Positions 26,206 to 44,182 of a DNA stretch of 52,304 bases are shown one piece after another. The notes beneath the pieces were generated by a model. The model was not told the DNA's origin and did not search any database. It worked only from the letters and a program-made list of their open reading frames with translations. Location of the stretch: positions 1-52,304 of IMG/VR virus record IMGVR_UViG_3300019458_000043, one strand, 5' to 3'. This DNA comes from a virus. Taxonomy: Duplodnaviria; Caudoviricetes. Within the stretch, counting starts at the first letter, position 1. Every line of letters starts with the position of its first letter. The translations under genes were made by a program, and so were the position numbers.

Positions 26206-26616
26206 ATGGCACAAGCCCTTGAAGCAATCTTCTACCGAGGCGACGACCAGAATCGGACAGACCACACGCCGACTTCCGGTGCCGTGAGCAACGGCGTAAT
26301 TGTTGATCTAGGGACGATCATCGGCGTTTGCACGTCCGTCGAGGGGATTGGCAACAACACTCTAGGTTCTTTGGCAACCGAGGGGGTGTTCAAGATCGCC
26401 AAAGACTCCGGCGTCGTGTTCTCTAAGAGCGACCCGGTGTTTTTCAATACCAGCACTCGCGTTGCCAAGACTGTCGGCGGGGCCAATACTATCCGTATCG
26501 GTATTGCCGACGAAGCCGCGGCCTCCGGCCACAACAACGTCAAATGCGACATCAACCGGCTGGGTCCACAGGACTCGAACGTGGCGACGGACCCTACGAC
26601 GACGACCACGACCTAA
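26206..26616 (+). CDS. Capsid decoration/cement protein (DUF2190-like) ending in TTTTTT
   Basis: DHTPTSGAVSNG.IV.LG.IIGV...GSLATEGVFKIAK...IGIA; six C-terminal Thr. Confidence 0.8.
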   Translation: MAQALEAIFYRGDDQNRTDHTPTSGAVSNGVIVDLGTIIGVCTSVEGIGNNTLGSLATEGVFKIAKDSGVVFSKSDPVFFNTSTRVAKTVGGANTIRIGIADEAAASGHNNVKCDINRLGPQDSNVATDPTTTTTT

Positions 26617-26743
26617 TCGACCAGGAGGATGACTACCTCCTAGACGAAGGTGGTGGCGTTTTACTGGCAGAGGTTTGACTCCCAGACTCGACTAGCCTCA
26701 TTTGGACCGGATGGGGCTGTCGGGTCTGGATAAGGGTTGACAA

Positions 26744-27145
26744 ATGGATCGACCACAACCAACAAAGCAACTCCCATCCCCTAATGTGTTCAACCACCCC
26801 GACCTTTCAGATAACGAGGATGGGACTTGGACACTAACGGACCCTCTTAGGTTCGTGCTGTCGATGGGTAGGGGGAAAATCGAAGTGGAAGTCCCAGCCG
26901 GTTTTGTAACGGATTTTGCATCGGTCCCCAGGTTGTTGTGGTTCATCTTCCCACCATTCGGTTCTTGGTCGCGACCTGCGGTGTTGCACGACTTTCTTTA
27001 CTCAGTAACAGGGGGGTGCTCACGGTTCTTAGCTGACGCTCTTTTCAGGGAAGCGATGTATCAACAATGCGTGCCGGCATGGCGTCGTGCTATCATGTAC
27101 TGTTCAGTCCGAATGTTTGGCCGACACGCCTGGAGGAAACGATGA
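26744..27145 (+). CDS. DUF1353-family protein
   Basis: VPAGFVTDFASVPR...AVLHDFLY...ADALFREAM...MYCSVRMFG. Confidence 0.85.
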   Translation: MDRPQPTKQLPSPNVFNHPDLSDNEDGTWTLTDPLRFVLSMGRGKIEVEVPAGFVTDFASVPRLLWFIFPPFGSWSRPAVLHDFLYSVTGGCSRFLADALFREAMYQQCVPAWRRAIMYCSVRMFGRHAWRKR

Positions 27146-27525
27146 CCTACCGTTTTCTCTCCCGATTACGGCATGTTGCTAACCGAGCAAACCAGGTAAA
27201 CGCGGAAGTCATAACTTATATTCGAGGTGCCACCAGCCGTGAGATGTCAGCAAGCCCGATTCTGATGGAGGCAGTCGAGATAATTCCGGGCCTGGTGGCA
27301 ACCCGGATTGAATATCAAGACTGGGCAATCGACGTTGTGGAGTTAGAAGTGTTTGGCGGGGTGCCTGTTGTCGGGGACAAAATAGTTCGTTCAACTGGTG
27401 AAGAGTTTCTGGTTTCATCGCGGGGGATGGTGACACAAGACATAACCGATCCACCTTACCGCTTTGCAACTTCTGACCGTGACCGGGTGATCGCCTATAC
27501 AAACCGCGTAAAGGGGAGTGGTTAA
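27142..27525 (+). CDS. Head-tail joining/closure protein
   Basis: Position; ITYIRG...P.VGDKI pattern. Confidence 0.6.
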   Translation: MTYRFLSRLRHVANRANQVNAEVITYIRGATSREMSASPILMEAVEIIPGLVATRIEYQDWAIDVVELEVFGGVPVVGDKIVRSTGEEFLVSSRGMVTQDITDPPYRFATSDRDRVIAYTNRVKGSG

Positions 27526-28007
27526 TGGCTGAGCTAACCGCACTACGCGACGAAGTTTACACCCGCATAAACGTCAAGAAATCGAACAGCCAATTCATTG
27601 TCAATAATTTTGCAGTCGAGAAGGACCGCTGGCTACCGTCGGAAGGTTTAGAGGGTTTGAAAGCGACGTACCCTAACGGGTTGTTGAACGTTATTGGTGG
27701 TTGCCTTGGGGACATGAAAAATTTGGGGCGACAACCACTAGCCAACCGCGAGTACAGTGTTCACATCTCCTTCCAAAAGGTAATCAACGGTCCTGCGGAC
27801 CCAAGCATCGACACCCTTGTCACCCTCCTCGAACAGCTAGATTTGATGTGTCTGTCACAGATTGCAAACAGCACCAACCGAATGACACCATCCAGAATCG
27901 AATACTTGAAGGACGAGCACAATCTACCCATCGCTTACGTGCTTCTCCGACAAGGTTCTTGCTTCTCAGCTCTTTTTTCCGCGTACTACCTGAAACCACT
28001 CCAGTAA
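27525..28007 (+). CDS. Probable tail terminator/completion protein
   Basis: Size and position directly before the tail tube gene. Confidence 0.5.
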   Translation: MAELTALRDEVYTRINVKKSNSQFIVNNFAVEKDRWLPSEGLEGLKATYPNGLLNVIGGCLGDMKNLGRQPLANREYSVHISFQKVINGPADPSIDTLVTLLEQLDLMCLSQIANSTNRMTPSRIEYLKDEHNLPIAYVLLRQGSCFSALFSAYYLKPLQ

Positions 28008-28031
28008 CCCCAAGAATAGGAGTTTAGACTT

Positions 28032-28526
28032 ATGGCACCTACAACTGGTTTCAACAACAAACTCTATCGAAACACCGGCAGCGTAGCCACCCCGGTATGG
28101 TCCGAAGTGAATCAGATCGGTGACGTTTCTATCGACGGCCTTACCCGCGGCCTTGCAGAGTTGAAGCGGCGGGCAACCCAGTTCACCCTCAACCTACCAT
28201 CACTCATCCAATCCATCACTGCTAGCTTCCGCTTGCATCATGGACTCGACAGTTCCACGTTCACGGCACTCCGACAAGCGTTCTTCGCCGCCACAGTCAT
28301 CGAGTGGGCTATCATGGACGGTGATATCGACGTAGCTGCCGCCGAAGGGTTGCGTATCCCTATGCTAGTGTCCGACTTTCCGTGGGAACAACCATTGGAA
28401 GACGTTTCGGGCCACGACGTAAAGCTGGCCGTCGGTTACATGACTAGTGGCGGCAATGAAGTTGTTCCATCTTGGCTAGTCGTTTCACAGAATCTCCAGT
28501 GGACAACCACCACAACCACCACGTAA
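28032..28526 (+). CDS. Major tail (tube) protein ending in TTTTTTT
   Basis: GFNNKLYRNTG..ATPVWSEV..IGDV...LRQAFF...VSDF...QPLED; AGGAG RBS; seven C-terminal Thr. Confidence 0.75.
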   Translation: MAPTTGFNNKLYRNTGSVATPVWSEVNQIGDVSIDGLTRGLAELKRRATQFTLNLPSLIQSITASFRLHHGLDSSTFTALRQAFFAATVIEWAIMDGDIDVAAAEGLRIPMLVSDFPWEQPLEDVSGHDVKLAVGYMTSGGNEVVPSWLVVSQNLQWTTTTTTT

Positions 28527-28564
28527 TAAAAACCAAAATCTCTAACCCATAGGGGGAACCACTC

Positions 28565-28906
28565 ATGTCCGAAAACAAGCCCAACGTCGAGAACGTACTT
28601 GCTCGACTCCAAAATCCTGGTGTCCAAGTACAACCCTTCAAGGTCCAGCACCAGGAGACGTTTCGACTCACAGCCGGCGAACTTCGCGGTGTCTGTAGCC
28701 AAAACCCAAAGCACCCCAAGGCTCAAGTCTTAACCGACGCTACCAAAGGGATGCCGGACGAACACTCGGTTGTCTGTGACCGTGTCGATCTTGAAGCGGT
28801 CATTGGCAACTACGATGTTGTCGAGGACCACGAAAGTGGACAGACCGAGGATGGCCCCGTTACAGTCGTTCGGAAACGACTGGGCGGCCCCCGGCCCCGG
28901 CGTTAA
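28565..28906 (+). CDS. Hypothetical protein
   Basis: AGGGGG RBS; lies in the tail operon. Confidence 0.6.
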   Translation: MSENKPNVENVLARLQNPGVQVQPFKVQHQETFRLTAGELRGVCSQNPKHPKAQVLTDATKGMPDEHSVVCDRVDLEAVIGNYDVVEDHESGQTEDGPVTVVRKRLGGPRPRR

Positions 28907-28956
28907 CTGTGTCGATTCTCCCCAAAGAAAACACCGGCGACTAGCTGGAGCTACTG

Positions 28957-30681
28957 ATGAAAATTCCAGAGTACCCCGAACTGGCAACAATCCAAGACGA
29001 TGACTTGTTCTATATCGTCGAGTATGTTGCTGGGAACTACGTGAGCAAAAAAGTCAAGGCTCTAACACTCCAAGAATACATCGAAGGTGTTCTTGGGGGT
29101 GGGAATGTGAGCAACCCGCTCACTGGCAACCTAAGTGCTGGGAACTTTTCCATCACGACTCTCCGAACCCTCACCCTCTCAAACGGGGGTGCTGGTTCCG
29201 CCGGTCAGACCCCAACGCTCGACGGTGCTGGCAACTTGACTTGGGCGACCCCGTCCGGGTCTGGTAACGTAACCAGCCCTCTCTCTGCTGCGTTGGATAT
29301 AGGAAGTTTTGGGATCGTCGGGTACACCGCCAGTCGTTTAGTGGTCACTAACGCGAACGGTAACATTACTGTTAGCTCCGTGACTGCTACCGAGGCGGGT
29401 CATCTCTCTGGTGTCACTTCCGCCATCCAAACCCAGATCAACACCAAAGCTGCCACTACCTATGTGGACGCTGCCGACACGATTCTGGACTCGGCTATCT
29501 CCTCGGAAGCCTCAGCCCGTTCCGCTGCCGACCTGACCCTGCTGCCCTTAGACGGCAGCCGCGAGATGACTGGCAACCTGAGTGCTGGGAACCAAACCTT
29601 GCTATACGTCGCCGGCATCCGTCTCTCCAGCGGCAACGGGACTGATGGCCAAGTCCCCATCGTGCAAGCCGACGGGAACCTTGCCTTCGGTGACATGATC
29701 GGGGGCGGCAATGCTACGCCCGGTGGTGGCAATACTGCAATCCAATTCAACGACGACGGTGCGTTTGGCGGTGACGAGGCACTGATCTCCTTTGACAAGG
29801 TTACAGGGACATTAGCGGTAGGAAATGTCACGATAAACGGTGGTGGAAACACCACTGTAACTAGTGATGATGGGCTTACTGTTAACGTCGGTGGCATATT
29901 AGTCAAAGGGCAGCCAGTAGATTCCAGCGGTTCTCAACGCTTGTGGTTCTACTACGACACACCGTTTGACCATTCCTTCATCATTTCTCGCGGCATTGAT
30001 GCTAGTACGATAGGTGCTCTACGCATCGGTGCCTACTCATCTAATGGCTCCGTTGGTCATGCGGTCGAGCTAGGAGCAGATGGAGTAGCCATTGGAGCTG
30101 GTGAGGATTACTACTTGCTACCTTGGGCTGACGGTGATGCTGGCCAAGCACTCGTTACCGATGGGGCTGGGACGGTGAGCTGGGCTAGTGTCGTTACCAA
30201 TCCGATGCTGACCGACTTCGGTATTGGGCAAGCCAGCCCTGGACCTGATTTGTGGGTGCATCTTGCTAGTGACATAAATCTTGGGGTACAAACTGCTGGT
30301 GGTGAAGTACAGATCGCTACGTTTGATGATGCCTACACCGGACAACCTTGTGGTTTCGGCTTTTATGCCGCTAGCCACAAATTTTTCGTCGGAAGTGATT
30401 TAGTGCTTGAGTTAGACGGCGGCGGTAACTTAGGTGTCTTCGACACCACACCAGTCGGACAACAAGCCTTGCTCACACCAACGCAGGACGACCTGACCGA
30501 CAGCACAGGCGGCACGCCTGGGACCACGCTCGCCGACTTCTCTGGTGGTATCGACACTGTAGATGCAACAACACTTCTCGATTGTATCGCTTCGCTTGCA
30601 GCACAACTCGCCAAGGTCAAAGATGACTTAGCGGCTGTTAACGATATTCTGATCGCTTTTGGCTTTGAGGCCGCAGCATAA
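28957..30681 (+). CDS. Fibre/spike-like structural protein
   Basis: Gly/Asp/Thr-rich with repeated DGAGNLTW/DGAGTVSW, LTGNLSAGN and IQFNDDGAFGG fibre motifs; C-terminal coiled segment. Confidence 0.7.
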   Translation: MKIPEYPELATIQDDDLFYIVEYVAGNYVSKKVKALTLQEYIEGVLGGGNVSNPLTGNLSAGNFSITTLRTLTLSNGGAGSAGQTPTLDGAGNLTWATPSGSGNVTSPLSAALDIGSFGIVGYTASRLVVTNANGNITVSSVTATEAGHLSGVTSAIQTQINTKAATTYVDAADTILDSAISSEASARSAADLTLLPLDGSREMTGNLSAGNQTLLYVAGIRLSSGNGTDGQVPIVQADGNLAFGDMIGGGNATPGGGNTAIQFNDDGAFGGDEALISFDKVTGTLAVGNVTINGGGNTTVTSDDGLTVNVGGILVKGQPVDSSGSQRLWFYYDTPFDHSFIISRGIDASTIGALRIGAYSSNGSVGHAVELGADGVAIGAGEDYYLLPWADGDAGQALVTDGAGTVSWASVVTNPMLTDFGIGQASPGPDLWVHLASDINLGVQTAGGEVQIATFDDAYTGQPCGFGFYAASHKFFVGSDLVLELDGGGNLGVFDTTPVGQQALLTPTQDDLTDSTGGTPGTTLADFSGGIDTVDATTLLDCIASLAAQLAKVKDDLAAVNDILIAFGFEAAA

Positions 30682-30700
30682 CCAACAAGAGGAGATCGTA

Positions 30701-30970
30701 ATGAAGTTCACCCTCGATGTACCGGACAAGATGTATGACAACCTGCTCCAAACATTCGGCTCCGAATCGGCCATCGTAGCCGGGGTGATTGATTGGGGGG
30801 TAGCAGCCGTTGCCGCCCATGAAAACAAGCAGGTGCGAGCAACCCGTCGAGTGGAGGATAGTGCGGCACGAGCAGCATCCGCCACCACGGCAAAGGCACT
30901 CAAACAGGCTGTTATCGTAACTAAAGAGGATGGTGAGGTAATCACCGCCCCAACCGGGAACATGACGTAA
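30701..30970 (+). CDS. Hypothetical protein (possible fibre chaperone)
   Basis: GAGGAG RBS; follows the fibre gene. Confidence 0.55.
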   Translation: MKFTLDVPDKMYDNLLQTFGSESAIVAGVIDWGVAAVAAHENKQVRATRRVEDSAARAASATTAKALKQAVIVTKEDGEVITAPTGNMT

Positions 30971-31010
30971 CGCTTTGGCAATAAAAACCACTTTCAGAAA
31001 GGGGAACCCG

Positions 31011-32384
31011 ATGAAACTTCTATTCACACTCTGTTTCGCCTTGTTGCCATTTGTAGTTCTGGCCCAAGACAACTGGCGACCGTCGGTTATGTCACCAGAA
31101 GAATTGGAGTGGCAACGCAAGACCTACGGCGAACCACCGGCTGAGGCTTATACCGCCATTGTCGATGGTTTCAAAACCACCCTCTCTCCTACCCAGCAAC
31201 CTGGGGTTTACGTCCCAACTCAAAAAGCCAACCCCGCCGTCGTGCGGGTTGGTTGCTTGGAGGGAAACAGTTGGTCCATCGGCTCGGGCACGTTGGTTGA
31301 CACCAACGACCAGCATGGTCTTATCGTTACCAACTGGCATATTTTCAGGGACAACCCTAGCGGTGCCATCCTTGTGCGTTTCCCAGACAAACGAGCCTTT
31401 TGGGCTAAGCGTGTAGGTGAGGACCGAACGAGCGACCTCGCTGCTCTGATTATCGAAAACCCTGGCGTTACCCCATTGCGTGTTATCCCCTACACCCCCC
31501 AAAGAGGAGAGAACGTTGCCATCGCCGGTTGGGGGGAACGCGGAACCTATAAGACCCAAACGGGGACTGTGTCCGACAAGTACGTTTCATTCGACGGTAA
31601 GAACTTTGATTGTCCTCAAATCTATGGGGCAGTAGCCCGGCAGGGGGATTCTGGTGGGCCAATTCTGACACCTGAGGATGAAGTGGTGGGGGTTCTCGCA
31701 GGCTGCGATGGTCGCCAGACTTGTGGGACGGGCGGGTATCGACTCTGTTCATTCCTTGCTCAGCATTCTGCCTATTACCGTTCATGCCCCGGTGGGAACT
31801 GCCCCCGACCTGTCATTGCGTCTCAGCCTCCGGCCAATTATAACTACTCCTACGATCATCGAAGGGGGCCGTTTGTTGGGCAGACCCAGGTTAGAGCGAA
31901 TGGTTCGACACCGACCCAACCAGCTCCGACTTACCAACCACCCCCACAACCAACCGCTACTGCTCCAGTAGCCCAACCTATCAAGGTTACACTGACTGAC
32001 GCGGACTACGAAAAGCTGGCCGGCCTAATCACCGAAAGAATAGCAAAGGATGGCCGTTTCAAGGGTAAGGACGGACTACCAGGTACCCCTGGCGAGAACG
32101 GGATGCCAGGGGCCGATGCAAAGATAACCGACGAGGTGTTAAACCAACTAGCCGGTAAGGTCCAAGCAAAGCTGGCTCCGATCACTTTCTATTTTGAAGG
32201 TGCGAGGGACAACGACGGCAACCCATCTATCCACCGCACAGAGGTTGTGTATCTCGGCGGGCACCTGAATATCCCAGCCCAACGGATGGAGATTGCTCAT
32301 CCGAACGGTGACAACTTTTATCAGGAGAAACCACTGGGCGAACCAATAGCCCTTGAGTTGGTGCCACGAAAACCCCCCAAGTAA
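31011..32384 (+). CDS. Secreted trypsin-like serine protease with Pro-rich linker and short collagen-like segment
   Basis: Signal peptide MKLLFTLCFALLPFVVLA; catalytic triad VTNWH / SDLAAL / GDSGGP; GKDGLPGTPGENGMPGAD. Confidence 0.85.
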   Translation: MKLLFTLCFALLPFVVLAQDNWRPSVMSPEELEWQRKTYGEPPAEAYTAIVDGFKTTLSPTQQPGVYVPTQKANPAVVRVGCLEGNSWSIGSGTLVDTNDQHGLIVTNWHIFRDNPSGAILVRFPDKRAFWAKRVGEDRTSDLAALIIENPGVTPLRVIPYTPQRGENVAIAGWGERGTYKTQTGTVSDKYVSFDGKNFDCPQIYGAVARQGDSGGPILTPEDEVVGVLAGCDGRQTCGTGGYRLCSFLAQHSAYYRSCPGGNCPRPVIASQPPANYNYSYDHRRGPFVGQTQVRANGSTPTQPAPTYQPPPQPTATAPVAQPIKVTLTDADYEKLAGLITERIAKDGRFKGKDGLPGTPGENGMPGADAKITDEVLNQLAGKVQAKLAPITFYFEGARDNDGNPSIHRTEVVYLGGHLNIPAQRMEIAHPNGDNFYQEKPLGEPIALELVPRKPPK

Positions 32385-32396
32385 ACGGAGGTTTGT

Positions 32397-32801
32397 ATGG
32401 CCGGTGAGGGGAACGAGGATGTAATACTGGAGGGAACCGCCCATAGCTCCGGGGTTTCGGAGCGACAAGACCCACTGGAAATCCCGGTTGGGGAACAATC
32501 GAAGGAGGATTCTATGGCTGCTGGTGATGGACTTGCGGGACCAACCCCGCAACTCGCGGAGCCGGGAAACCTGGCTGTCGCGATGTCTGTTTTGGCCCAA
32601 GGGGCCGCTGGTGCCGCAGACGCTCGTATGCGTGCTGCTGACCAGTTGGGTTCCGATTCTCAACGTATGTGGTCTATCGCGATGACAACGCCGACCGTCC
32701 TGGCTGGCCTTGGCTATCGTGCCGCGACCGAGTCCGGTTCCGGCCGCACTCGTGCGGAGACCAACAACCCGGCGAACACCGGGGCCGCTGGCAACACCTA
32801 G
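32397..32801 (+). CDS. Ala/Gly-rich hypothetical protein (second start possible at 32514)
   Basis: GGAGG before 32397 and AGGAGG before 32514. Confidence 0.6.
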   Translation: MAGEGNEDVILEGTAHSSGVSERQDPLEIPVGEQSKEDSMAAGDGLAGPTPQLAEPGNLAVAMSVLAQGAAGAADARMRAADQLGSDSQRMWSIAMTTPTVLAGLGYRAATESGSGRTRAETNNPANTGAAGNT

Positions 32802-32814
32802 TCAGGAGGCGACA

Positions 32815-33102
32815 ATGTCTTCCACTTCCGATATCGCCAAGAAAGCGGCTGATGATGCCATCGCTAGGATGCAAGTGGCCGATAACGAAGCCCTTGCATC
32901 CAGCGTGGCATTTACCCTTGGCCCCGACAACTTCCAACAATACTATGACAAGAAGGCGGCTGATGCCACAGCCCGCTTGGAGAAACTTTATGGGGAACTT
33001 ACCGGACTCAGACCCAAACCAATCTTCGACACTTCACAACCCGCTAAAACAAGCAGCAGAGTTGATAGCTCTGTGGGGGCCACAACTGTCCGCGGGGGCT
33101 AA
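32815..33102 (+). CDS. Hypothetical helical protein
   Basis: AGGAGG RBS. Confidence 0.6.
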   Translation: MSSTSDIAKKAADDAIARMQVADNEALASSVAFTLGPDNFQQYYDKKAADATARLEKLYGELTGLRPKPIFDTSQPAKTSSRVDSSVGATTVRGG

Positions 33103-33547
33103 AGCGGTAGGTTTAGAAGACCACCAACGAATGTTAAAGGATTTCCGAAACCGAATCGCCGACACCCACAAACTTCAGATGAAACAACTCGGTATGAAGG
33201 AGGATGAAGTAACCGAGGAAAAACCAGGAGAGGAGGACACTATGGGGGTTGCTCTAGCTCGAGACATCATTTACAACATCAATACCCCGACCACCCCACC
33301 ACCATCAGCAGAACTAAAGGGAGAACCCCAGGCAGCGGTTCCACTCCCACCAAACCCGGTAACTAATAAATCTCCTTGGTGGAAGCCTATGCTGCCTGCC
33401 GCTATCGGTGCCGGCCTCACCGGGATCGGCCTCGCGGGGTGGGATTGGCTCAGCTCATCTCCCCCAAAAGAAAACCCAGCCCCGGTCACAATCAACCAAC
33501 TTGATTCGTTACAGTACGACTTGCAGTTCGGGAAACCTTCCCGCTAA
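32990..33547 (+). CDS. Membrane-anchored Pro-rich protein
   Basis: TM-like WWKPMLPAAIGAGLTGIGLAGW; overlaps the previous ORF. Confidence 0.55.
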   Translation: MGNLPDSDPNQSSTLHNPLKQAAELIALWGPQLSAGAKAVGLEDHQRMLKDFRNRIADTHKLQMKQLGMKEDEVTEEKPGEEDTMGVALARDIIYNINTPTTPPPSAELKGEPQAAVPLPPNPVTNKSPWWKPMLPAAIGAGLTGIGLAGWDWLSSSPPKENPAPVTINQLDSLQYDLQFGKPSR

Positions 33548-33580
33548 TAAAATCCAAAAATTGCCACTAGGGGAACCATA

Positions 33581-35190: not shown

Positions 35191-35463
35191 ATGCTCTTGG
35201 CCGAAACCAGCACCCTCGAAATAGTCCTGATGGTTATCTCAGCCTTGTTAGGTATAGGCTTAACGGCCGGGCTACCTTGGGCTTTCATTGTGGAGCGACG
35301 ACTTGCCAGAATCGAAGCCAGTTTGAACATCAGGCTCTCTGGGTTAGCTGACGACGACGCACGGGTTGAACTCTGTGTAACGACACTTGGTAGAAAGGTT
35401 GACGAACTTGCCAATAAGATAATCCATATCGAAGCTACGATTGAAACTAAATTAAAGGGGTAG
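35191..35463 (+). CDS. Single-TM plus coiled-coil membrane protein
   Basis: AAGGAG RBS; hydrophobic N-terminus followed by heptad repeats. Confidence 0.6.
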   Translation: MLLAETSTLEIVLMVISALLGIGLTAGLPWAFIVERRLARIEASLNIRLSGLADDDARVELCVTTLGRKVDELANKIIHIEATIETKLKG

Positions 35464-35466
35464 GGT

Positions 35467-38253
35467 ATGTCAACTGCTGGTTCTATCCGAGCTGGTCGGG
35501 CGTTCGTCGTTATCGAAGCTATTGATCGAACGGCTAGTGTCCTTCGCAGCGTTGCTGCTCGATTGGACCAGTTCGGTACACGATTAACCAACATCGGTCG
35601 TAACATCACAGGTATTACATTTGGGATGTTGCTGCCCATCGTAAAGGGTGCAAAAGACTTTGCTAACTTTGATGATGCACTTCGCAAGGTCGAAGCTCGC
35701 TCTCAAGGTTCTGCCGAAGAGATGGACAAAATCCGACAGCACGCAAAGGATTTGGGTGCTGCTACAGTATTTACTGCGTCCGAGATAGGTGAGTTGCAAG
35801 CCGTCCTCGCCCAAAAGAAATTCAGCCGACGTGAAATTACAGAAATGACCGAGGCGATCACTAACCTGGCTATTGCCGCCGGCGAGGGTGCGGACCGGAT
35901 GGAAGATGCCAGAGATGCCGCATACTTAGTCTCTGGTACCATCCGATCATGGGGCTTACAAGCCGAGGACGCTAACCGTGTTGCCGATCTGATGACCGCA
36001 ACGGTTACAGCTAGTAACTCCACCATGCGGGCCTTGATTACCACCCTCCAATACGCCGGCCCGGTGGCTGGTCAGGTTGGCTTATCAATGGAAGATACGC
36101 TTGCGATGGTGGCTGCTATCTCTCAACTTAACATTCACCCGTCTATCATCGGTACGTCAATCCGCAACATGGCTGAGTTTCTTACCGACCCGAAACGACA
36201 ACAGGAGTTTAACCAGACATTACAGAACCTGAACGGGTTGTCTGTAACATTTGAGGATATGAACCATAACCTGTTGCCTGTCCCTAGCGTTCTGTTCGCC
36301 GTTGGTGAAGCAATAAAGGATTTGGGTACAGCCCAGCAAATCGAGATGTTGCACCGCTTGCTAGGCACCCGTGCAGTATCCCCAGCCCTTGGTCTTGTTC
36401 GAGGCAAAAACCTGTTCGCAGAAATTAACGATCTGTTAAAGAAAGCTACTGGTTCCGCCCAGCGCTTCCGCGATATCATGTATGCTGGTGTAGGCAACGC
36501 TCTGGAACGTGTATTATCTGCCGCTCAAGCTGTTTCCATCGCTCTTGGCGAAGCTTTTGAACCTGCCTTGATACAACTCTCCAATACAACCGAGCGATGG
36601 TTAAACAATCTTATCGACTGGGTGGATCATAACAGGGGACTGGTCGCAGGTATTGCTGCCAGTGTTGTTGCTCTTTTTGCATTCGGTATCTCTTTAGTTA
36701 CCACTGGGTTGCTGGTAAAGCTCTTAGCATTTAGTATAGAGATGCTAGCTGCTGCTATTACCTTTCTCATGGCCCCGATCCATCTTCTTATCGCTTTCGT
36801 CCCAGTTCTCATAACCACTGTTATCTTCCTTACCAGATCAATCGCTGCTCTGGCAGTTACCATCACACTCTCATTGTTGACTGCCCTGCGAACAACTGCT
36901 GTCTTTATGGCAACTGTTCTACCGGGGTTGTTCGTAACTTTGATGGACTTAATAGGGAACCTGCTCGCCTTCGCTCTCTACCCTTTGATTATGGTTGTCT
37001 ATGCTTTGGGCCAGGCATTCTTCTGGTTAGGTCTTCTCGCAGTCCGTAGCCTTATCGGTACCCTTGCCCTACTGCCAGGTTTACTGATTAGTGTAGTCAC
37101 CACAATGGTCTCAGTCTTCGGTGCCGTTCTGTCTGCACTAATAATTGCTTTTGGTCCTGTAGCTGGGGTGCTGATTGCAGTTGCCGCAGTTGTCGGCATC
37201 GTACTCTTGAACGTAGCTGCCTTACAACAAATCTGGGGGCGTATGGGTGTGGCTGCCCAACAAGCCTCCGCTACTGCTGTTGCAAGCACCCGAGCACAAG
37301 CCGCAGCGACCTCACAATTTGGTGGTGTTACTCAAAGTGTCTATAATCGCATCTCGTCCAGCCTTTCCCTGTTCTGGCAGGATGCCCAAAAAGCATTCTC
37401 CTCTATAGCCCGTATTGGCTCAAGTGCATTCTGGGAAATAAAAGATGACGCTATGCTTGTATTCAACGGTATTATCCAGGCACTAGCAAAAGGTGACGTG
37501 GAAGCTGCTTGGGCTATTATCACGGCTGGTATCCAGTTGTTGTGGCAAGATTTAGTTGACGCTATCAAGGCCATGTGGGAGCAGCTCATGGCTTTTTTGA
37601 AACCGTACATGGATGTTGTGAAAAGTGATATCAAAAACGTTTCTAACTGGATAGTCCGTTTCTACTGGGGCGGTCTATTCACCGGCAACCCGAAACAACC
37701 TGCCGCCGCTGCCGGTCCTCTTATAGAGGATGAAGCGACGATGCGAAAACGGCACCTCACCGATGCTATCTCCGAGTATAATCGTATCTCTATGCTTAAA
37801 GATATGGTTGAACTAACTGAGGGGGAGTTGAACCATCTCAAACTTTTGAAACAACAAGTAGTGGAACTAGACCCAGCGGCCGGGAAGGAACTGGACCGTG
37901 CCGAGAAGCGTGGAGAACTTCGTAAGAAACTGTTTGACATCATCAATGCTACTCGCGACTTCTCCCCAAAGAGAACAGAGAAAGCCCGCAACGACTTTGC
38001 AGCTACGCTTGGTGCCTGGCAAAATCAGGTAGATGATATGGTCAACGAGGTTGGCATGACAACAGCGATGGCTCCTAACGTAGGACTGGAGCGAGGTAGC
38101 GTCGAAGCTGCCAAAAAGTTCAGGGAGAATCTGGCAAACAACGAGTTACTCCAACAGCAAATACAAGCCCAGGACGTTCAGAAGAAACAGTTGGATGCTT
38201 TGATGAACATCGACGAGAATACAAAGAAGATCGAAGCGATGGAGGGTGTATAA
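35467..38253 (+). CDS. Tail tape measure protein (TP901 core)
   Basis: AGRAFV; AKDLGAATVFTASE; LQYAGPVA; long hydrophobic helical region. Confidence 0.9.
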   Translation: MSTAGSIRAGRAFVVIEAIDRTASVLRSVAARLDQFGTRLTNIGRNITGITFGMLLPIVKGAKDFANFDDALRKVEARSQGSAEEMDKIRQHAKDLGAATVFTASEIGELQAVLAQKKFSRREITEMTEAITNLAIAAGEGADRMEDARDAAYLVSGTIRSWGLQAEDANRVADLMTATVTASNSTMRALITTLQYAGPVAGQVGLSMEDTLAMVAAISQLNIHPSIIGTSIRNMAEFLTDPKRQQEFNQTLQNLNGLSVTFEDMNHNLLPVPSVLFAVGEAIKDLGTAQQIEMLHRLLGTRAVSPALGLVRGKNLFAEINDLLKKATGSAQRFRDIMYAGVGNALERVLSAAQAVSIALGEAFEPALIQLSNTTERWLNNLIDWVDHNRGLVAGIAASVVALFAFGISLVTTGLLVKLLAFSIEMLAAAITFLMAPIHLLIAFVPVLITTVIFLTRSIAALAVTITLSLLTALRTTAVFMATVLPGLFVTLMDLIGNLLAFALYPLIMVVYALGQAFFWLGLLAVRSLIGTLALLPGLLISVVTTMVSVFGAVLSALIIAFGPVAGVLIAVAAVVGIVLLNVAALQQIWGRMGVAAQQASATAVASTRAQAAATSQFGGVTQSVYNRISSSLSLFWQDAQKAFSSIARIGSSAFWEIKDDAMLVFNGIIQALAKGDVEAAWAIITAGIQLLWQDLVDAIKAMWEQLMAFLKPYMDVVKSDIKNVSNWIVRFYWGGLFTGNPKQPAAAAGPLIEDEATMRKRHLTDAISEYNRISMLKDMVELTEGELNHLKLLKQQVVELDPAAGKELDRAEKRGELRKKLFDIINATRDFSPKRTEKARNDFAATLGAWQNQVDDMVNEVGMTTAMAPNVGLERGSVEAAKKFRENLANNELLQQQIQAQDVQKKQLDALMNIDENTKKIEAMEGV

Positions 38254-39173
38254 TGCCCCTACACTTAGGTATAAAAGACAGTTCCACAGAAAGTACCGTT
38301 AAGGTGGAACTAAAGAGCGGTACGTTAGCTTTGGAGCACAAAACTCGTAAAGATACTCACTACGTTCTAGCCGACGATATTCTTGATGATGAGGATGCTA
38401 TTCTAGCTACTACCGGCGTACCCGGTATGTACTCTATTCAAAGCGGGTGTGTAGTAACAGATTTGAACCCTAGTGTATCATCAACTATCATCCACCCAAC
38501 AACAGGTTTGCTAACACAGTTATGGGAAGTCGAAGTTTCCTATGACTCCAACGTTCCGCCGGACATAAACCAACCGATTACCTCTCAAACACCCAAGGTG
38601 CGTTGGTACCCAGAAGCTGAGGAAGAGGTTCTTGAGAAGGATGCGATCACTAACGAGCCAATTACCACCGCTTGCGATGAGCCAATCATCATCGAGCACC
38701 AATACTACCAGATTATCCAGGAAATTCGTCGGTACGAGGCTTACCCATTTGACCAGCTTCTCCAGTACACCTATGGCAACCACGTCAACGAAACAGAGTT
38801 TTGGGGTGCCCCACCGGGTTGTGCCCTTCTCCTTCCAATGGAAGTTGAGGAGGAAGCCATCAACCAACAACGATTTTGTATTGTAACCTACAAGGTAAAA
38901 TACAAGATCCGATTTGACGACAACGGCGACATGCTGGAAGATACACACAAAGCTGCCCCGCTCCATCAAGGAAACCTTTACTTCCCAAAACTGGATATAG
39001 CCCTAAGCCCGCTGGGTGTCCCCAAGCGTTTCCTCGACAAGGATGGCAACCCCGGTACTGTCAACCTGGACATTTTCGGTGTACCGCTACCCCCAGGCCA
39101 ACCACCCCAGTACCTCTCATTCAATCGGTTCCCTAAAGCTGACATAAACTTGTTGAACCTCGGCCCCTTCTAA
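38253..39173 (+). CDS. Distal tail/baseplate protein
   Basis: Follows tape measure; WEVEVSY, VNETEFWGAPPG. Confidence 0.6.
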   Translation: MPLHLGIKDSSTESTVKVELKSGTLALEHKTRKDTHYVLADDILDDEDAILATTGVPGMYSIQSGCVVTDLNPSVSSTIIHPTTGLLTQLWEVEVSYDSNVPPDINQPITSQTPKVRWYPEAEEEVLEKDAITNEPITTACDEPIIIEHQYYQIIQEIRRYEAYPFDQLLQYTYGNHVNETEFWGAPPGCALLLPMEVEEEAINQQRFCIVTYKVKYKIRFDDNGDMLEDTHKAAPLHQGNLYFPKLDIALSPLGVPKRFLDKDGNPGTVNLDIFGVPLPPGQPPQYLSFNRFPKADINLLNLGPF

Positions 39174-39189
39174 TAAAAACCAAAATCCC

Positions 39190-41322
39190 ATGCCTGTATT
39201 CGGTTTCGGCGATAAAGAGGTTGCACTACGTTTGAAGAACCTGGCTAGGGAGCGAGAACATCGGTCCCAGTGGTTCAACCGCAACTATGTCAAAGAGTTG
39301 CAACGACTCGCTTTGCGGGCTTATATTATCATTCTTGATTACCCAATAGAGCCAGCTACCCAAGTCGGAGGTGGCTGGCGATTAGGGGTAGGTACTGGCG
39401 TAATCCATTTCCGAAACGATGTGGACTCACAGGATCGAGCCGAGCACCGCAACTCTCGAGAGTTGGAAGTGTCGATCAAAACTCGTGATCTAATTCCCCA
39501 TCGTGACCCACAAACCGGCGAGTGCGGTCGGGTGCGAGTGTTCAACTTCACAGAGCAAACCATACCAGCTTGTGTCCCTGTAAGTGCTGTGCAGGATAAC
39601 TTTGGCGACTACTACATCCTTGAGCCATACGAGCAAAGCGGGGCTGGCGAGGGTACATCCACTACCACCACTTCACTCCCTACTTGTACCGGCGAGTGCA
39701 AATACGTCTGGAACGAAGCCGGTAACACCTGGCAACTAGGCACACAAACTTGCGGCCCCCCGACCACCACTTCGACTACCACTTCAACCACCGCTGCCCC
39801 CTGCACCGGCAATTGTATCATCGTCTGCCCAAGTGGGACGTGGCAGCTAAACAACACTTGCGAACCGGGTTGCGATTGTGGTTTGGAGATACTTATCGGT
39901 CAGCCTTGTACTATCGGAGCACAGCAAGGTGCTCCCTGCGGCGACGGGACTACTACGACCACCACAACCACTACACTCGACCCTTGCTCTTGCGGTACGA
40001 CCTCCACTACTACTACTACATCCCAAACAACAACCGACCCGGATACAACTACTACGACGGAGAACCCTTGCCATTGCCTACCCCCAACCTACTGCGGCAC
40101 AGAAGATGGTGAATGTACCTACACCCAATGCTCTCAAGGTGAGATTACATACATCATTGACTGTGAAACTGACGATACAACTACTACCACACCCACCCCT
40201 TGCTCCGCCTCGCAATGTTCACAGATTTGCACCAATGGTATTTGGACTTTATGTGCCAACGACCCACCAGTAGAGGATCAGAGTGACCAGGAACTAGAAG
40301 ATGAGAACGACGACCCCATCGACGGTAATGGTTGTGACCAAGGTTGTGCCCACGGCTGCGGGTGCCCGGAGCTAGGCGACGCTTGCTCTCCAGAAAACGA
40401 AGTTCGTTATGTCGGTTGCGAAACCACCACAACCTGTGACTGTAATACATCCACTACGAGTACGAGCAACCCAGAGTGTGCCGGTGGTTGTGATTGGTTA
40501 TGGATACCCACGTCGGGCTGGGCTAAGATTAACGATTTCTGTCACTCGTCATGTCCCTGCCCCGAACCTGTCCCCGTTGGTACCAACTGCCAGACAGCCC
40601 ATACAGACTGTGAACCTGTGGAACCGATTGCAACCACATTGCCCCCAGTAGAATGCACAGGTGGTTGTATCTATTGGTGGCTCGACGTAATCAACCAGTG
40701 GCATTTGACTGACTACGACTGTTCACTCTCTGTCGATTGTACTTGCGTTGAGCCAAGCACTCCCGGTAATTATTGTGCCCCTATCAAGTTACCTTGTATC
40801 AAACTCACCACTACTACGGTCAACCCCAATACCACCCCACCCCCTTGCGAGGACTGTTATACAACAACGACAACCTCTACCACTTCCACTACAACGACCA
40901 CCCCCAACCCTTCTGATTGCGAAGGCGACTGCTTATGGCAATGTAGTAGTGATGTTTGGAACCTTATTGATTTTGGGTGCAACCTGAGCCAAAACTGCTC
41001 ATGCTTACCACCATCTATTGCTTGTCATGACGACTGTGAACGGGCCAGGACGATCTGTTTCCAGACAACTACAACACCTGCCCCCACGACAACCAGCACA
41101 ACCATCACAACTTCATCTACAACTACTACAATAGGGCCATGTGAGACAAGAGGTTGTTCAGTACAGTGTCTCAGAAATGAGTTTGACCAGTTGGTATATG
41201 TGCAAGTATTAGACAATTGTGACTTTGATTGTACCTGCAACACACCTTTTCCCATAATAGGAGAGCCATGTAGTTTTGAGTTTGCCGTTCAAGGATTCCC
41301 GTGTGACACTACCACTACCTAA
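39190..41322 (+). CDS. Cys-rich, poly-Thr (mucin-like) tail-associated protein
   Basis: About 150-aa N-terminal domain, then repeated CxGxCxxxW/C...W...CxxxCxC modules separated by Thr/Ser tracts; ends DTTTT. Confidence 0.8.
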   Translation: MPVFGFGDKEVALRLKNLAREREHRSQWFNRNYVKELQRLALRAYIIILDYPIEPATQVGGGWRLGVGTGVIHFRNDVDSQDRAEHRNSRELEVSIKTRDLIPHRDPQTGECGRVRVFNFTEQTIPACVPVSAVQDNFGDYYILEPYEQSGAGEGTSTTTTSLPTCTGECKYVWNEAGNTWQLGTQTCGPPTTTSTTTSTTAAPCTGNCIIVCPSGTWQLNNTCEPGCDCGLEILIGQPCTIGAQQGAPCGDGTTTTTTTTTLDPCSCGTTSTTTTTSQTTTDPDTTTTTENPCHCLPPTYCGTEDGECTYTQCSQGEITYIIDCETDDTTTTTPTPCSASQCSQICTNGIWTLCANDPPVEDQSDQELEDENDDPIDGNGCDQGCAHGCGCPELGDACSPENEVRYVGCETTTTCDCNTSTTSTSNPECAGGCDWLWIPTSGWAKINDFCHSSCPCPEPVPVGTNCQTAHTDCEPVEPIATTLPPVECTGGCIYWWLDVINQWHLTDYDCSLSVDCTCVEPSTPGNYCAPIKLPCIKLTTTTVNPNTTPPPCEDCYTTTTTSTTSTTTTTPNPSDCEGDCLWQCSSDVWNLIDFGCNLSQNCSCLPPSIACHDDCERARTICFQTTTTPAPTTTSTTITTSSTTTTIGPCETRGCSVQCLRNEFDQLVYVQVLDNCDFDCTCNTPFPIIGEPCSFEFAVQGFPCDTTTT

Positions 41323-41333
41323 AGGGGAACAAG

Positions 41334-43298
41334 ATGAAACTTACAGTAGGGATGGCTACCTACGATGATTACGACGGTGTAGTTTTTAGCATCCAAGCCT
41401 TGCGGCTCTATCACCACGTCGATGAGCTACTGGTTGTAGATAACAACCCCGGTTCGCTTGCCGCTCGGCACCTCGCCGATTTTTGTCAAAAAACTGGGGC
41501 ACGGTATATCCCTATGCCGGAGCCCGTAGGGACTTCCGCCCCTCGCAATCGCGTCTTTACCGAAGCTACCGGCGATGTTGTATTATGTATGGACAGCCAT
41601 GTACTAATCCAGCCAGGTGCTTTGCAATTACTTCGAGAGTGGTTTATTGATGTATCATCCCACAACGATCTCGATATGGCCCTGCTTCACGGGCCGATGA
41701 TGCTCGACTCCTTCAATGGTATTCAGACACACTTCGATAGTGTCTGGCGTGCCGAAATGTGGGGTATCTGGGGTCACGCTTGGCGATGCCGTTGTTCAGA
41801 CCACGCCCGGTTCATTTTCTCAATGCAACCGTCTGAGTACCAGCAAACATACTACCTGCCAATCTCCCCCAAAGAAAACCTCGCTGCCTGCCCCTACTGT
41901 GGTAACAAACTCCCCGACCTATCTTGGTCCCAACACGAATCTCAAATGTTGGCCCTCGGCTTTGAGCCTTGTGCTCTAAAAGACGATGAACCCGCGTTCG
42001 ATATTCCAGGCCAGGGTCTCGGTCTCTTTGCCTGTCGTAAAGATGCGTGGTTAGGCTTTAACCCACACTTCCGCGGCTTCGGTGGGGAGGAAATGTATAT
42101 CCATGAAAAGTTTCGGAAAGCTAACCGCCGTGTGTTTTGTCTCCCATTCCTCAAATGGTGGCACCGCTTCGGGCGTCCCAGTGGGGTAAAGTATCCACTA
42201 ACCCGCTGGAACAAGGTCCGCAACTACGTGCTCGGCCACAACGAATTGGGGTTGCCACTCGATCCGGTCCATGCCCATTTTGTAACCACCAACCTCATGA
42301 CCCAAAGCCAGTGGGACTACCTGGTAGCCGATCCTATCCATCGGCCTTCCAACCCGAATGTATTGTCGGTACCTTCCCCCAAAGAAATCCCAGCCCCGTC
42401 CATAACTCAACTGTACCAGGCAGCCCGTGGGACATCTCGAGATCTTGACCAACATATGGATCAGTTGCGGTTGTTGGCGGGGCTTTGTGATAACATAACT
42501 GAGATATCAAAACGAAAAGAATCCACCATCGCTTTTGTTGCCAGCGGCCGTCCAGTCATTTCCTACAATACTGAGTCTGGGGACCAAACCTACCAAACCC
42601 TAATCCGCATAGCCCCCAACTTCCAATGGCACGACCAAAACTCCACGCAAGTCGAGTCTATCGCAGCTACCGACCTGTTGTTCATCGACTCCGAACATAC
42701 CTACGCACGGTTGAAGGAGGAACTGAACAAGTACGCTACCGCTGTCCGACGGTTTATCATATTACATGATACTCAGTTGCACGGCGAGCGGGGGGCCGAC
42801 AACGGGCCAGGTCTAAACCAGGCATTGCGAGAGTTTACAGCCGACAACCCCGCTTGGTTCGTCTATTATTACACACCTAACCAGTTCGGGTTAACGGTAC
42901 TTGGTATCCGACCGAGTGACCGCCCAGCTAATAAAATCCACGCTTGGGCACCTATGTATGGTCCCGGTACCGAGCTAACTAATTTACTCAGTTCGCTTGG
43001 TGTCGTGTCCAAACCGAACTGTACCTGTCGGGCAATGGCAAACCAGATGGATATCTGGGGGGTCCAGGGTTGTAGAGAGCCGGCCCATCACCAGCAGATT
43101 CTTACCACCATCCATAGTAACAAAGACAAGTGGGGGTGGAAGGATAGGGTACTTGCCATCACAAAGGCTGTTACTAGTGGTCTAGCATTTAAGCTAAACC
43201 CACTCGACCCATTCCCCTCCCTGATCGACGAAGCGATCCGACGAGCGGAGTTAGCTGAACAATCAAGACTTACTTCCATCGAAATTGAAGGCCACTGA
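41334..43298 (+). CDS. GT2 glycosyltransferase fused to a class I methyltransferase-like domain and a Cys-containing C-terminal domain
   Basis: LTVGMATYDD, LLVVDNNP, VLCMDSH, FRGFGGEE; DLLFIDSEHTY...IILHDT; GPGTEL...CTC...WG..GC. Confidence 0.85.
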   Translation: MKLTVGMATYDDYDGVVFSIQALRLYHHVDELLVVDNNPGSLAARHLADFCQKTGARYIPMPEPVGTSAPRNRVFTEATGDVVLCMDSHVLIQPGALQLLREWFIDVSSHNDLDMALLHGPMMLDSFNGIQTHFDSVWRAEMWGIWGHAWRCRCSDHARFIFSMQPSEYQQTYYLPISPKENLAACPYCGNKLPDLSWSQHESQMLALGFEPCALKDDEPAFDIPGQGLGLFACRKDAWLGFNPHFRGFGGEEMYIHEKFRKANRRVFCLPFLKWWHRFGRPSGVKYPLTRWNKVRNYVLGHNELGLPLDPVHAHFVTTNLMTQSQWDYLVADPIHRPSNPNVLSVPSPKEIPAPSITQLYQAARGTSRDLDQHMDQLRLLAGLCDNITEISKRKESTIAFVASGRPVISYNTESGDQTYQTLIRIAPNFQWHDQNSTQVESIAATDLLFIDSEHTYARLKEELNKYATAVRRFIILHDTQLHGERGADNGPGLNQALREFTADNPAWFVYYYTPNQFGLTVLGIRPSDRPANKIHAWAPMYGPGTELTNLLSSLGVVSKPNCTCRAMANQMDIWGVQGCREPAHHQQILTTIHSNKDKWGWKDRVLAITKAVTSGLAFKLNPLDPFPSLIDEAIRRAELAEQSRLTSIEIEGH

Positions 43299-44182
43299 TG
43301 ATACCGACCGTACTTTGCTTGTGTCCTACATATAACCGGCCAGCCCATCTGGTTTCAAATGCGTTGGCGTGCTTTGAAATCCAGGATTATCCGGCCAGCC
43401 ACCGCGTATTATTTATCCTCGATGATAAACCTTGCTATAGTATGCAACGCGGTACCAACTGGATAGTCTGGGCCGAGAACCGTCGCTATCCATCTCTGCC
43501 AGCCAAGTATAACGAGATGCTCCGAATGATCCGCGACATTCCGTGGTGCCAGTTCACCGGTTATCCACCATCTAACGATCTGCCCACACCCAGCCCGCTG
43601 ACTATCCACCATCAACACCATCACCCCTGGAACTGCCACCCAGACCTTGTACTTGTATGGGATGACGACGACGTGTACCTCCCTTGGCACATCTCGTCGT
43701 ATGTCGAGGCATTACAGCAGCCACGTATCCACCATCAACCATCCGAATTACGCCCTGGTTGGGTCCACCCCACCATTGTATGGACTGACTACCCCGGTCG
43801 CCTGATCCAGGAAATAGCCACCGGGAGGTTCCACGGTAGTCTCGGTGTATCCTGGGAGTTGTTGGACCTGCTGGAAGGGTGGGTTACGACAAAGCGAGCC
43901 GACTTTGACCAACAGATGATTGCCAAGCTCCACAAAAGCTTACCACCATCCCGCCCGCCCGTTAGGTATCCACCATCATACATCTTTCGGTGGGGTTCGA
44001 CGGGCGGTGCTCATTGCCAGTCGCATATGAAGACACCAGCCAACGAGACATGGTACGAGGACTATGCAATGTTAGCAACACCTCAACCGTATCGGGGGGA
44101 ATTGGTGGCAGCTATGGATAAAACCACCAGCCAATACATTAAAGAGATAGCGGCGGGTTTCGTTCCCCAACCCGCTAGCTAG
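43298..44182 (+). CDS. GT2 glycosyltransferase
   Basis: CLCPTYNRP, ILDD, WDDDDVYLPWHI. Confidence 0.85.
   Translation: MIPTVLCLCPTYNRPAHLVSNALACFEIQDYPASHRVLFILDDKPCYSMQRGTNWIVWAENRRYPSLPAKYNEMLRMIRDIPWCQFTGYPPSNDLPTPSPLTIHHQHHHPWNCHPDLVLVWDDDDVYLPWHISSYVEALQQPRIHHQPSELRPGWVHPTIVWTDYPGRLIQEIATGRFHGSLGVSWELLDLLEGWVTTKRADFDQQMIAKLHKSLPPSRPPVRYPPSYIFRWGSTGGAHCQSHMKTPANETWYEDYAMLATPQPYRGELVAAMDKTTSQYIKEIAAGFVPQPAS

Follow-up and report, generated by a model that had tools for sequence, protein, structure and literature searches.

Threonine-tailed virion proteins and glycosyltransferase genes in a phage late operon

We analyzed a 52,304-base stretch of DNA (hereafter, the window) that makes up the whole of the IMG/VR virus record IMGVR_UViG_3300019458_000043 and has a CheckV completeness estimate of ~74%. 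According to Pfam and PHROG annotation, replication and nucleotide-modification genes on the plus strand are followed by a siphovirus-type late operon. Two products of this operon—a head decoration (cement) protein and the presumed major tail (tube) protein—end in runs of threonine, and the operon closes with a three-gene cassette that encodes a Thr- and Cys-rich, mucin-like tail protein, a glycosyltransferase–methyltransferase fusion (GT-MT), and a second glycosyltransferase (GT), in that order. As argued below, these elements probably form a system for O-glycosylation of the virion. The relevant features, all on the plus strand, are the following:

26206..26616, + strand: head decoration (cement) protein, 136 aa, ending DPTTTTTT (Pfam PF09956, PHROG 122)
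26596..26613, + strand: poly-Thr tail (T6) of the cement protein, codons ACG ACG ACG ACC ACG ACC before TAA
27525..28007, + strand: virion gene between the head-tail joining and tube genes, without a family match and without a tail in the window
28032..28526, + strand: major tail (tube) protein, 164 aa, ending WTTTTTTT (assigned by gene order and weak fold matches)
28503..28523, + strand: poly-Thr tail (T7) of the tube protein, codons ACA ACC ACC ACA ACC ACC ACG before TAA
39190..41322, + strand: mucin-like tail protein, 710 aa, with 17.6% Thr, 66 Cys, and 12 runs of T4 or longer
41308..41319, + strand: C-terminal TTTT of the mucin-like protein, which ends DTTTT (codons ACT ACC ACT ACC)
41334..43298, + strand: GT-MT, 654 aa (Pfam GT2, fold, weak methyltransferase match)
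41334-42368, + strand: GT-A domain of GT-MT, aa 1 to ~345 (Pfam GT2, structure model)
aa ~350-530 of GT-MT, + strand: class-I methyltransferase-like domain, followed by a C-terminal extension
43298..44182, + strand: second GT, 294 aa, GT-A/GT2-like with a DxD motif (Atlas, invariant DDD)

An initial annotation of this DNA had assigned Thr runs immediately before the stop codon to three virion proteins, with coordinates that are all correct, and had seen no such ending on a replication gene. Both statements held across the 515 stop-to-stop open reading frames (ORFs) of at least 50 aa in the six frames: five of these carry a terminal homopolymer of four or more residues, namely two minus-strand valine runs and three Thr tails, the latter all on virion genes. 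The chance of four terminal threonines is ~2e-5 per protein at a Thr content of ~6.5%, so a chance origin of the tails is negligible. The third of them did not hold up as a dedicated tag. The mucin-like protein contains 12 runs of this kind along its length, so that its terminal TTTT is better described as a linker-type tract, and the C-termini of homologues vary (for example, ETTPPP or NGSCVPL).

The cement protein, previously called DUF2190-like, matches PF09956 (Phage_cement_2; 9.4e-14, 52.1 bits against a cut-off of 24) as well as the head decoration family PHROG 122 (1e-9). The tube protein has no match in Pfam or PHROG. Its AlphaFold2 (AF2) model, with a predicted local distance difference test (pLDDT) score of 77.8, gave weak but consistent Foldseek matches to tail-tube and Hcp proteins (lambda gpV, YDC107, monocin, SPP1), with E-values of only 4e-3 to 5e-2, template modelling (TM) scores of 0.4–0.5, and probabilities of up to 1.0; gene order also fits a tube role, as the gene follows those for head-tail joining and precedes that of the tape measure protein. 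The last block of the model scores 52, arguing that the poly-Thr tail is probably disordered. For the gene at 27525-28007 we found no Pfam or PHROG family, and its product aligns with L028:9401-9922 at 36% identity (BLASTP, E 9e-33), where L028 is the locus label of the related record G023 (likewise, G022 = L027, G017 = L022, and G007 = L037).

The cassette encodes a mucin-like protein and two predicted soluble glycosyltransferases

The mucin-like protein consists of an N-terminal part of ~150 aa, followed by Cys/Trp-rich modules of ~30 aa each that are split by poly-Thr/Ser tracts (14 S/T tracts in total), and it matches no Pfam or PHROG family. As initially described, the two GT genes end the late operon in close succession: a gap of 11 bases separates the mucin-like gene from GT-MT, which ends on the very base (43298) at which the second GT begins.

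The first domain of GT-MT belongs to PF00535 (GT2; 2.9e-11, 44 bits against a cut-off of 23.3), and residues D36, D87-x-H89, E253, and H277 are invariant in an alignment of 39 sequences. The AF2 model of residues 1-345 (pLDDT 92.6) adopts a GT-A fold. Searching this domain against the PDB with Foldseek returned, among the matches listed, only polypeptide N-acetylgalactosaminyltransferases (ppGalNAc-Ts), with E-values from 5e-13 to 3.5e-10. VIA-align, which does not depend on Foldseek, was run against 48,161 representative chains and placed GalNAc-T1 on top (Z 23.0; root-mean-square deviation 2.9 over 256 residues) and Toxoplasma GalNAc-T3 second (Z 21.6), followed by B4GALNT1 (Z 19.3), RmlT (18.5), TarS (17.8), and SpsA (17.4).

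The second GT lacks a Pfam match at E 0.05 and a PHROG match. Atlas groups it with PF00535 clusters (features 0.98, structure TM 0.61-0.66), and across 9 aligned homologues the DDD motif is invariant and a CPTY-type N-terminus is conserved. The identification of both genes as GTs therefore stands, by Pfam GT2 for the first and by the Atlas GT2 clusters together with the invariant DDD for the second. We detected no transmembrane or hydrophobic segment in either GT, and no GtrA or flippase-like partner was seen.

Two further observations concern these enzymes. The second GT carries at aa ~95-115 a His/Pro-rich insertion with a histidine run that is missing from all eight aligned homologues. Moreover, a 570-aa ORF of the cassette-less relative G007 (G007:C1:18896-19039) matches GT-MT within residues 542-592 only (E 1.5e-6); since the match is confined to this segment, the C-terminal extension of GT-MT may be a separate domain, common to another phage protein.

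Threonine tails accompany the cassette among relatives of the phage

The core of the tube homologues ends ...DPSWYxVP, and 11 of 112 database homologues extend it by a poly-Thr run of 4-9 residues. When 41 of the tube homologues were aligned and used to search viral contigs, 28 loci were recovered, six of which encode a tailed tube protein. Besides T7 in the window, the tails read TTTTTGA in G001, SSTTTTT in G020/G021, and T9 in both G022 and G023. In a maximum-likelihood tree of 130 tube cores from which the tails had been removed, T-tailed rows were interleaved with T-less ones (for example, G026, which lacks the cassette too), and the presence of the tail required six changes, at least three of them forced by well-supported branches. 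A metagenome scan with the tube alignment returned 31 loci, mostly short or duplicates of viral records, and added one new T-tailed tube on a 2.2-kb contig; the long T-less metagenome contigs L041, L044, L048, and L068 stand outside the comparison of GTs and tails. A single-protein scan of species genomes with the tube gave no match, and a viral scan with an alignment of the P0078 clade, which has T-tailed tubes, recovered no member of that clade.

The initial annotation had predicted that C-terminal Thr runs and the GTs would co-occur among relatives of the tube gene, and comparative genomics bears this out. Four of the 28 tube records—G001, G020, G021, and G023—encode a homologue of GT-MT (E 1e-100 to 1e-159, 43-50% identity), and these are exactly the T-tailed records that are long enough, the two other tailed records being fragments of ~7.5 kb. 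Conversely, the search for GT-MT gave no match in any of the eight long T-less records, which measure 36-58 kb and include two with terminal repeats. Counted over six-frame ORFs, poly-T tails number 8 among 870 in the four cassette records versus 1 among 2565 in the eight others. The single exception, at 35623-35937 of G007, was rejected as an out-of-frame ORF nested in a longer gene. Hence, relatives that keep Thr tails without GTs, which would have spoken against a connection, did not appear: the eight long cassette-less records hold no credible tail.

The tail is portable, too, as had been suggested. The cement orthologue of G023 (41% identity) ends in T12 and that of G022 in T8, and the cement orthologues of G001 and G020/G021 have no tail. 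The gene at 27525-28007, untailed in the window as well as in G001 and G020/G021, has orthologues ending in T7 (G022) and T5 (G023). Orthologues of tube, cement, and this third virion protein are thus tagged in differing combinations, and the tagged proteins of an unrelated phage, G030, are different ones altogether.

Cassette genes on other phage backbones and in Planctomycetota contigs

Scanning with a GT-MT alignment identified 304 relatives on viral contigs, of which 80 were retained, and 245 relatives of the GT family in species genomes (one genome per species). Within the tube family, the order of the three cassette genes is kept in G001, G020/G021, and G023; on backbones without a tube homologue, the cassette was found in G029, G030, G032, G034, G035/G036, G038, and G040. 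The second GT follows the GT-MT gene in G023, G029, G030, G032, G034, G035/G036, G038, and G040. Among 13 further records checked, one (G039) contains a tube homologue, the others being different phages. The tube protein of G039 is distant (32-36% identity to all others) and also ends TTTTGA, and the record has the cassette.

All 13 viral loci with a match of GT-MT length harbor a Thr-run-rich ORF upstream on the same strand, the end of which lies 5 to 1112 bases from GT-MT (at most 142 bases in 12 of the 13). At loci matching only the GT domain, such an ORF was seen in 19 of 67 cases and within 1.5 kb in 7 of 67; one of these loci, L081, is a contig-end truncation of G020. No Thr-run-rich protein is encoded in the ~382 kb of the eight long cassette-less relatives. 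Judged from this distribution of sequences, the cassette is mobile and the putative mucin-like fibre gene is its constant partner.

In many phages with the GT domain only, free of a methyltransferase fusion, we also noted extreme Thr-run ORFs nearby (L102:4787-5836, L109:7351-9954, L116:4937-8218, L141:2263-3642) with up to 44% Thr, some of them nearly Cys-free, suggesting that the GT family may serve several kinds of mucin-like proteins.

The unrelated 72.5-kb phage G030 carries the cassette as well, and there T5 plus three residues closes two further proteins: one of 343 aa with a weak tail-fibre match and one of 180 aa encoded beside the fibre gene. G030 and G039 thus add independent instances of tails that accompany the cassette. 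In G032, a 153-aa ORF ending TTTTTSAA overlaps two better ORFs.

The phage had initially been called Planctomycete-type, and the host-side matches agree. Among full-length matches in species genomes, the top four are contigs of Planctomycetota metagenome-assembled genomes (MAGs), labelled Planctomycetia, Pirellulales, Planctomycetia, and Thermogutta (36-50% identity), and in all three of the Planctomycetota MAG contigs examined, a Thr-rich gene lies directly upstream of GT-MT. Homologues of the GT domain only are scattered over many phyla of the species genomes. On these sequence matches, the host probably is a member of the Planctomycetota.

A model for mucin-type O-glycosylation of the virion

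Taken from gene content and predicted structures, the reading we favor, and consider likely, is that the phage O-glycosylates its own virion on poly-Thr by means of the cassette. The late operon would end in a mobile three-gene unit that gives the particle a mucin-type O-glycan coat. Gene 1 (39190-41322) would encode a tail-tip or fibre protein whose Cys/Trp-rich modules sit on poly-Thr linkers, resembling the proline-, threonine- and serine-rich (PTS) domains of mucins. The product of gene 2 (41334-43298), a soluble cytoplasmic enzyme with a D-x-H motif, would transfer the first sugar onto the Thr hydroxyls of unfolded poly-Thr tracts, presumably at a late stage of infection and no later than virion assembly, and the methyltransferase-like domain fused to it would methylate the sugar. 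Gene 3 (43298-44182), a GT-A enzyme with a DxD motif, would then extend the glycan, although the order of these steps is our inference.

If this enzyme recognizes little beyond the Thr run, a disordered C-terminal poly-Thr tail would turn any virion protein into a substrate. In the window, the tagged proteins would be tube and cement, and relatives would tag a different protein set. Tube and cement are present in many copies per particle, so head and tail would both be coated. The mucin-like fibre is probably the primary substrate, with the tube and cement tails acting as secondary tags. Such a coat might benefit the phage by shielding, by stability, or by adhesion to host or environmental glycans.

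A wider version of this model holds that phages of Planctomycetota and apparently many other uncultured phages own a self-contained, cytoplasmic mucin-type O-glycosylation system with an initiating enzyme related to animal ppGalNAc-Ts, which would accept nothing more than a Thr run and could place a methylated glycan at will on head, tube, or fibre. We regard this wider version as tentative, a possibility that falls somewhat short of being probable.

Counterevidence and alternative explanations

A number of observations weigh against virion glycosylation on poly-Thr. Its support comes from comparative genomics and structure prediction throughout. The contrast of four out of four versus zero out of eight partly reflects shared ancestry: the tube family provides one independent pair on supported branches and two on all branches, with which a sign test cannot reach significance, and given only one or two independent contrasts, we make no claim of statistical independence. 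Nine T-tailed tube homologues (P0012, P0039, P0061, P0073, P0078, P0085, P0095, P0097, and P0109) are known as proteins only and fall outside the cassette comparison. Furthermore, G017, a T-less relative, encodes a GT2 of another kind downstream of its tail genes. This 567-aa protein (L022:17410-19113; PF00535, 3.5e-25) is encoded in a record with terminal repeats whose tube ends ...VVAGT; it may represent another variant of virion glycosylation that uses another acceptor, or have no relation to it.

The cement tail is sporadic, being absent from G001, G020/G021, and both close database homologues (only two were found). The close relatives G022 and G023 differ in tail length, with T8 versus T12 on cement and T7 versus T5 on the third protein, which probably reflects rapid, slippage-driven change. 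The initial annotation had taken the mixed codons as pointing to selection on the protein and away from slippage. The codons are indeed a mixture of ACA, ACC, ACG, and ACT; the length differences fit slippage-prone repeats. Finally, non-fibre poly-T tails occur in at most two of the seven cassette records on other backbones (clearly in G030, doubtfully in G032), which leaves at least five of the seven without tails on other proteins.

Together with the constant pairing of fibre gene and GT-MT (13 of 13 loci), the sporadic, length-variable tails are the grounds for a serious rival explanation, namely that only the neighboring mucin-like fibre is glycosylated and that the tube and cement tails are unmodified, either as low-complexity sequence born of slippage or as hydrophilic spacers. 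We nevertheless consider this unlikely. The restriction of the tails to cassette genomes (eight in four records versus no credible one in eight) argues against it, and it does not account for their recurrence on different orthologues and on unrelated proteins of G030. All cassette-bearing members of the tube family, the distant G039 included, retain the tail on the tube, and the mixed codons of the tails fit this reading poorly. Besides, if the enzyme modifies poly-Thr linkers, a poly-Thr tail with a free end should be a substrate for it too.

The enzyme data, too, contain points that weigh against the favored reading. Wall-teichoic-acid GT2 enzymes also reach Z 17-18.5 in VIA-align, so that similarity of fold is no proof of a protein acceptor, and in a profile search TarP and TarS lead the sequence matches in the PDB (E 3e-4 to 1e-3) and GalNAc-T7 reaches only E 0.18, over query positions 216-279. 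Because the sequence favors TarP/TarS over GalNAc-T7, the resemblance to family GT27 is one of fold and motif, not of family membership. The methyltransferase part matches PF04989 (RMNT_CmcI) at 0.003 and 17.7 bits, under the cut-off of 23.2, and Atlas places it (feature score 0.90, structure TM 0.50-0.58) with clusters in which 13-33% of members carry PF13578 or PF04989. The methylation of the glycan raised in the initial annotation thus keeps a candidate domain of weak likeness (sub-threshold in Pfam, 0.90 in Atlas), and a CmcI/Methyltransf_24-type identity of aa 350-530 is a lead only.

Could the GTs then act on DNA carrying 5-hydroxymethyldeoxyuridine (5-hmdU) derivatives, or on the host envelope in lysogenic conversion, with the Thr tracts as unmodified linkers? 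The window does encode a 5-hmdU DNA kinase (PF18723, 4.3e-36) and a thymidylate-synthase-like enzyme, the closest solved relatives by sequence are the teichoic-acid GT2 enzymes TarP and TarS, and there are well-known phage GTs with DNA or O-antigen as their target, as stated in PMC12619734. We hold this explanation to be improbable. The cassette does not track the kinase, which has homologues in only three of the 28 related records: G013 and G026 have the kinase without the GT, and G021, which is 98% complete, has the GT without the kinase. This disfavors action on modified DNA, an alternative that the initial annotation had named. The envelope is an unlikely target because the enzymes are soluble and close the tail operon beside the fibre gene across several backbones, at the end of the late structural genes; a membrane segment and a GtrA- or flippase-like partner are likewise missing from the picture, and the closest fold is that of the peptide-acting ppGalNAc-Ts.

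That host enzymes or another chemistry such as phosphorylation modify the poly-Thr, with the phage GTs building a separate product, is very improbable, as nothing speaks for it directly beyond a methyltransferase-like domain that could act on a non-sugar substrate, and as it leaves the joint appearance and loss of Thr-run proteins, tails, and cassette unexplained.

Relation to known glycosylation systems

To our knowledge, a few mycobacteriophages are the only phages whose particles have been demonstrated to be glycosylated. Freeman et al. 2023 (Cell Host Microbe) reportedly described virion O-glycosylation in mycobacteriophages Che8, Corndog, and Myrna. According to four articles that cite this work (PMC12619734, PMC12363180, PMC11256854, PMC13445384), phage GTs attach O-linked glycans at the C-termini of the capsid and tail-tube subunits of mycobacteriophage virions. 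On that account, virion glycosylation on poly-Thr would share with the mycobacteriophage system soluble, phage-encoded GTs, C-terminal acceptors on abundant subunits including the tail tube, the same mark on head and tail proteins, and a glycan coat as the presumed outcome.

The differences are equally plain. Capsid and tube proteins of Che8 end ...NKTGS and ...YSDGS, in place of poly-Thr. The GT genes of Che8 are located at the right genome end, remote from the genes for structural proteins; those of the window close the tail operon. No family-level relation links the enzymes: the GT profile aligned by hhalign to Che8 gp110, gp109, and gp108 gave probabilities of 0.1%, 0.1%, and 13%, and tblastn with the GT-MT protein found no match in 50,697 GenBank phage records. 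Unlike in the mycobacteriophage system as described in those articles, the head target would be the cement protein, the major capsid protein of the window ending ...QSAGA without a Thr tail. The dedicated mucin-like fibre substrate, the fused methyltransferase-like domain, and a host that is probably one of the Planctomycetota, not the Actinobacteria, set the system further apart. What would be shared with the mycobacteriophages is the principle of a C-terminal acceptor on head and tail subunits; different would be the enzyme family, the poly-Thr acceptor, the mucin-like substrate, the methyltransferase-like fusion, and the host phylum. The locus suggests an independent and mechanistically different form of virion glycosylation in an unrelated phage group.

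Eukaryotic ppGalNAc-Ts (CAZy GT27) provide the closest solved folds by both Foldseek and VIA-align. GT27 enzymes use a D-x-H motif, and the invariant D-x-H of GT-MT occupies the usual DxD position; as in mucins, the putative substrate consists of Thr-run tracts, here within a Cys-rich modular protein. GT-MT shares only 12-16% sequence identity with GT27 enzymes. It lacks their ricin-type lectin domain and membrane anchor, has a methyltransferase-like domain fused in their stead, and would work inside the cytoplasm of a bacterium.

Chlorovirus PBCV-1 glycosylates its capsid with virus-encoded enzymes, for example A064R, a multi-domain glycosyltransferase and methyltransferase; the glycans of this eukaryotic giant virus are atypically N-linked and sit on the major capsid protein. 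The likeness lies in virus-encoded cytoplasmic machinery for a structural protein, with GT and methyltransferase fused, and the poly-Thr acceptor and mucin-like fibre belong to the phage system alone. SunS, the glycocin S/O-GT of family GT2, is a soluble bacterial GT-A enzyme that acts on Ser/Thr/Cys of a cytoplasmic peptide. At Z 15.0 in VIA-align, it ranks well below the ppGalNAc-Ts and many polysaccharide GT2 enzymes, and it differs in modifying a single residue of a small bacteriocin precursor, recognized via a dedicated domain.

In the full texts searched—a set outside of which lie ~1.7 million PMC articles and the subscription journals—we found no description of poly-Thr tags or of mucin-type glycosylation in phages; one literature lead, PMC12014285, turned out to be irrelevant.

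Were virion glycosylation on poly-Thr correct, a few ACN codons before the stop would be enough to enrol any virion protein, providing a minimal, transferable glyco-tag. Glyco-engineering would gain a useful tool, namely a soluble enzyme able to glycosylate a bare Thr run in the cytoplasm of bacteria, and an evolutionary link to eukaryotic mucin glycosylation would be possible. The 304 viral and 245 species-genome relatives suggest that sugar-coated phages may be common in environmental viromes, which would have consequences for adsorption and particle stability as well as for grazing and antibody recognition.

Further genes of the phage record

The remaining annotated features of the window are:

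13192-13629, + strand: PRA-PH/MazG-like pyrophosphohydrolase, adjoining the DNA polymerase
13967-15064, + strand: thymidylate-synthase-like enzyme, adjoining the DNA polymerase
26744-27145, + strand: DUF1353 protein (PF07087, 1.8e-26; PHROG 1158 'tail assembly chaperone')
30975-32384, + strand: trypsin-like serine peptidase (PF13365, 7.3e-17) with a hydrophobic, signal-like N-terminus
35467..38253, + strand: tape measure protein (Pfam PhageMin_Tail, 6.3e-35; 23 PHROG families, mostly tape measure)
38253..39173, + strand: tail protein at the distal-tail position (assigned by position only)

The replication and modification set comprises a PD-(D/E)XK nuclease, a family A DNA polymerase, the 5-hmdU DNA kinase, the thymidylate-synthase-like enzyme, and a primase/helicase-like protein. 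The kinase adjoins the DNA polymerase within 11496-15064, and the gene content of this region suggests, on sequence grounds, thymidine hypermodification of the phage DNA.

The late operon runs from the large terminase through a lambda-type portal, a protease-capsid fusion, the cement protein, the DUF1353 protein, and the head-tail joining protein to the tube-position protein, the trypsin-like peptidase, the tape measure protein, and the tail-tip genes. The fusion, at 23521-25839, is a single 772-aa ORF that joins a prohead protease/scaffold-like N-terminal part to a major capsid domain (PF25209 at aa 468-759; PHROG 4523 'major head and protease protein'); relatives have ORFs of 749-798 aa at this position, with the C-terminal motif conserved. 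The DUF1353 gene, located between the cement and head-tail joining genes, overlaps the next ORF by ~80 bases. At the distal-tail position, the gene at 38253..39173 has no Pfam or PHROG match, and L007, L003, L026, and L028 hold ORFs of 304-314 aa there. The trypsin-like peptidase is encoded inside the tail cluster, and both L002 and L028 have ORFs with similar N-termini at the same position.

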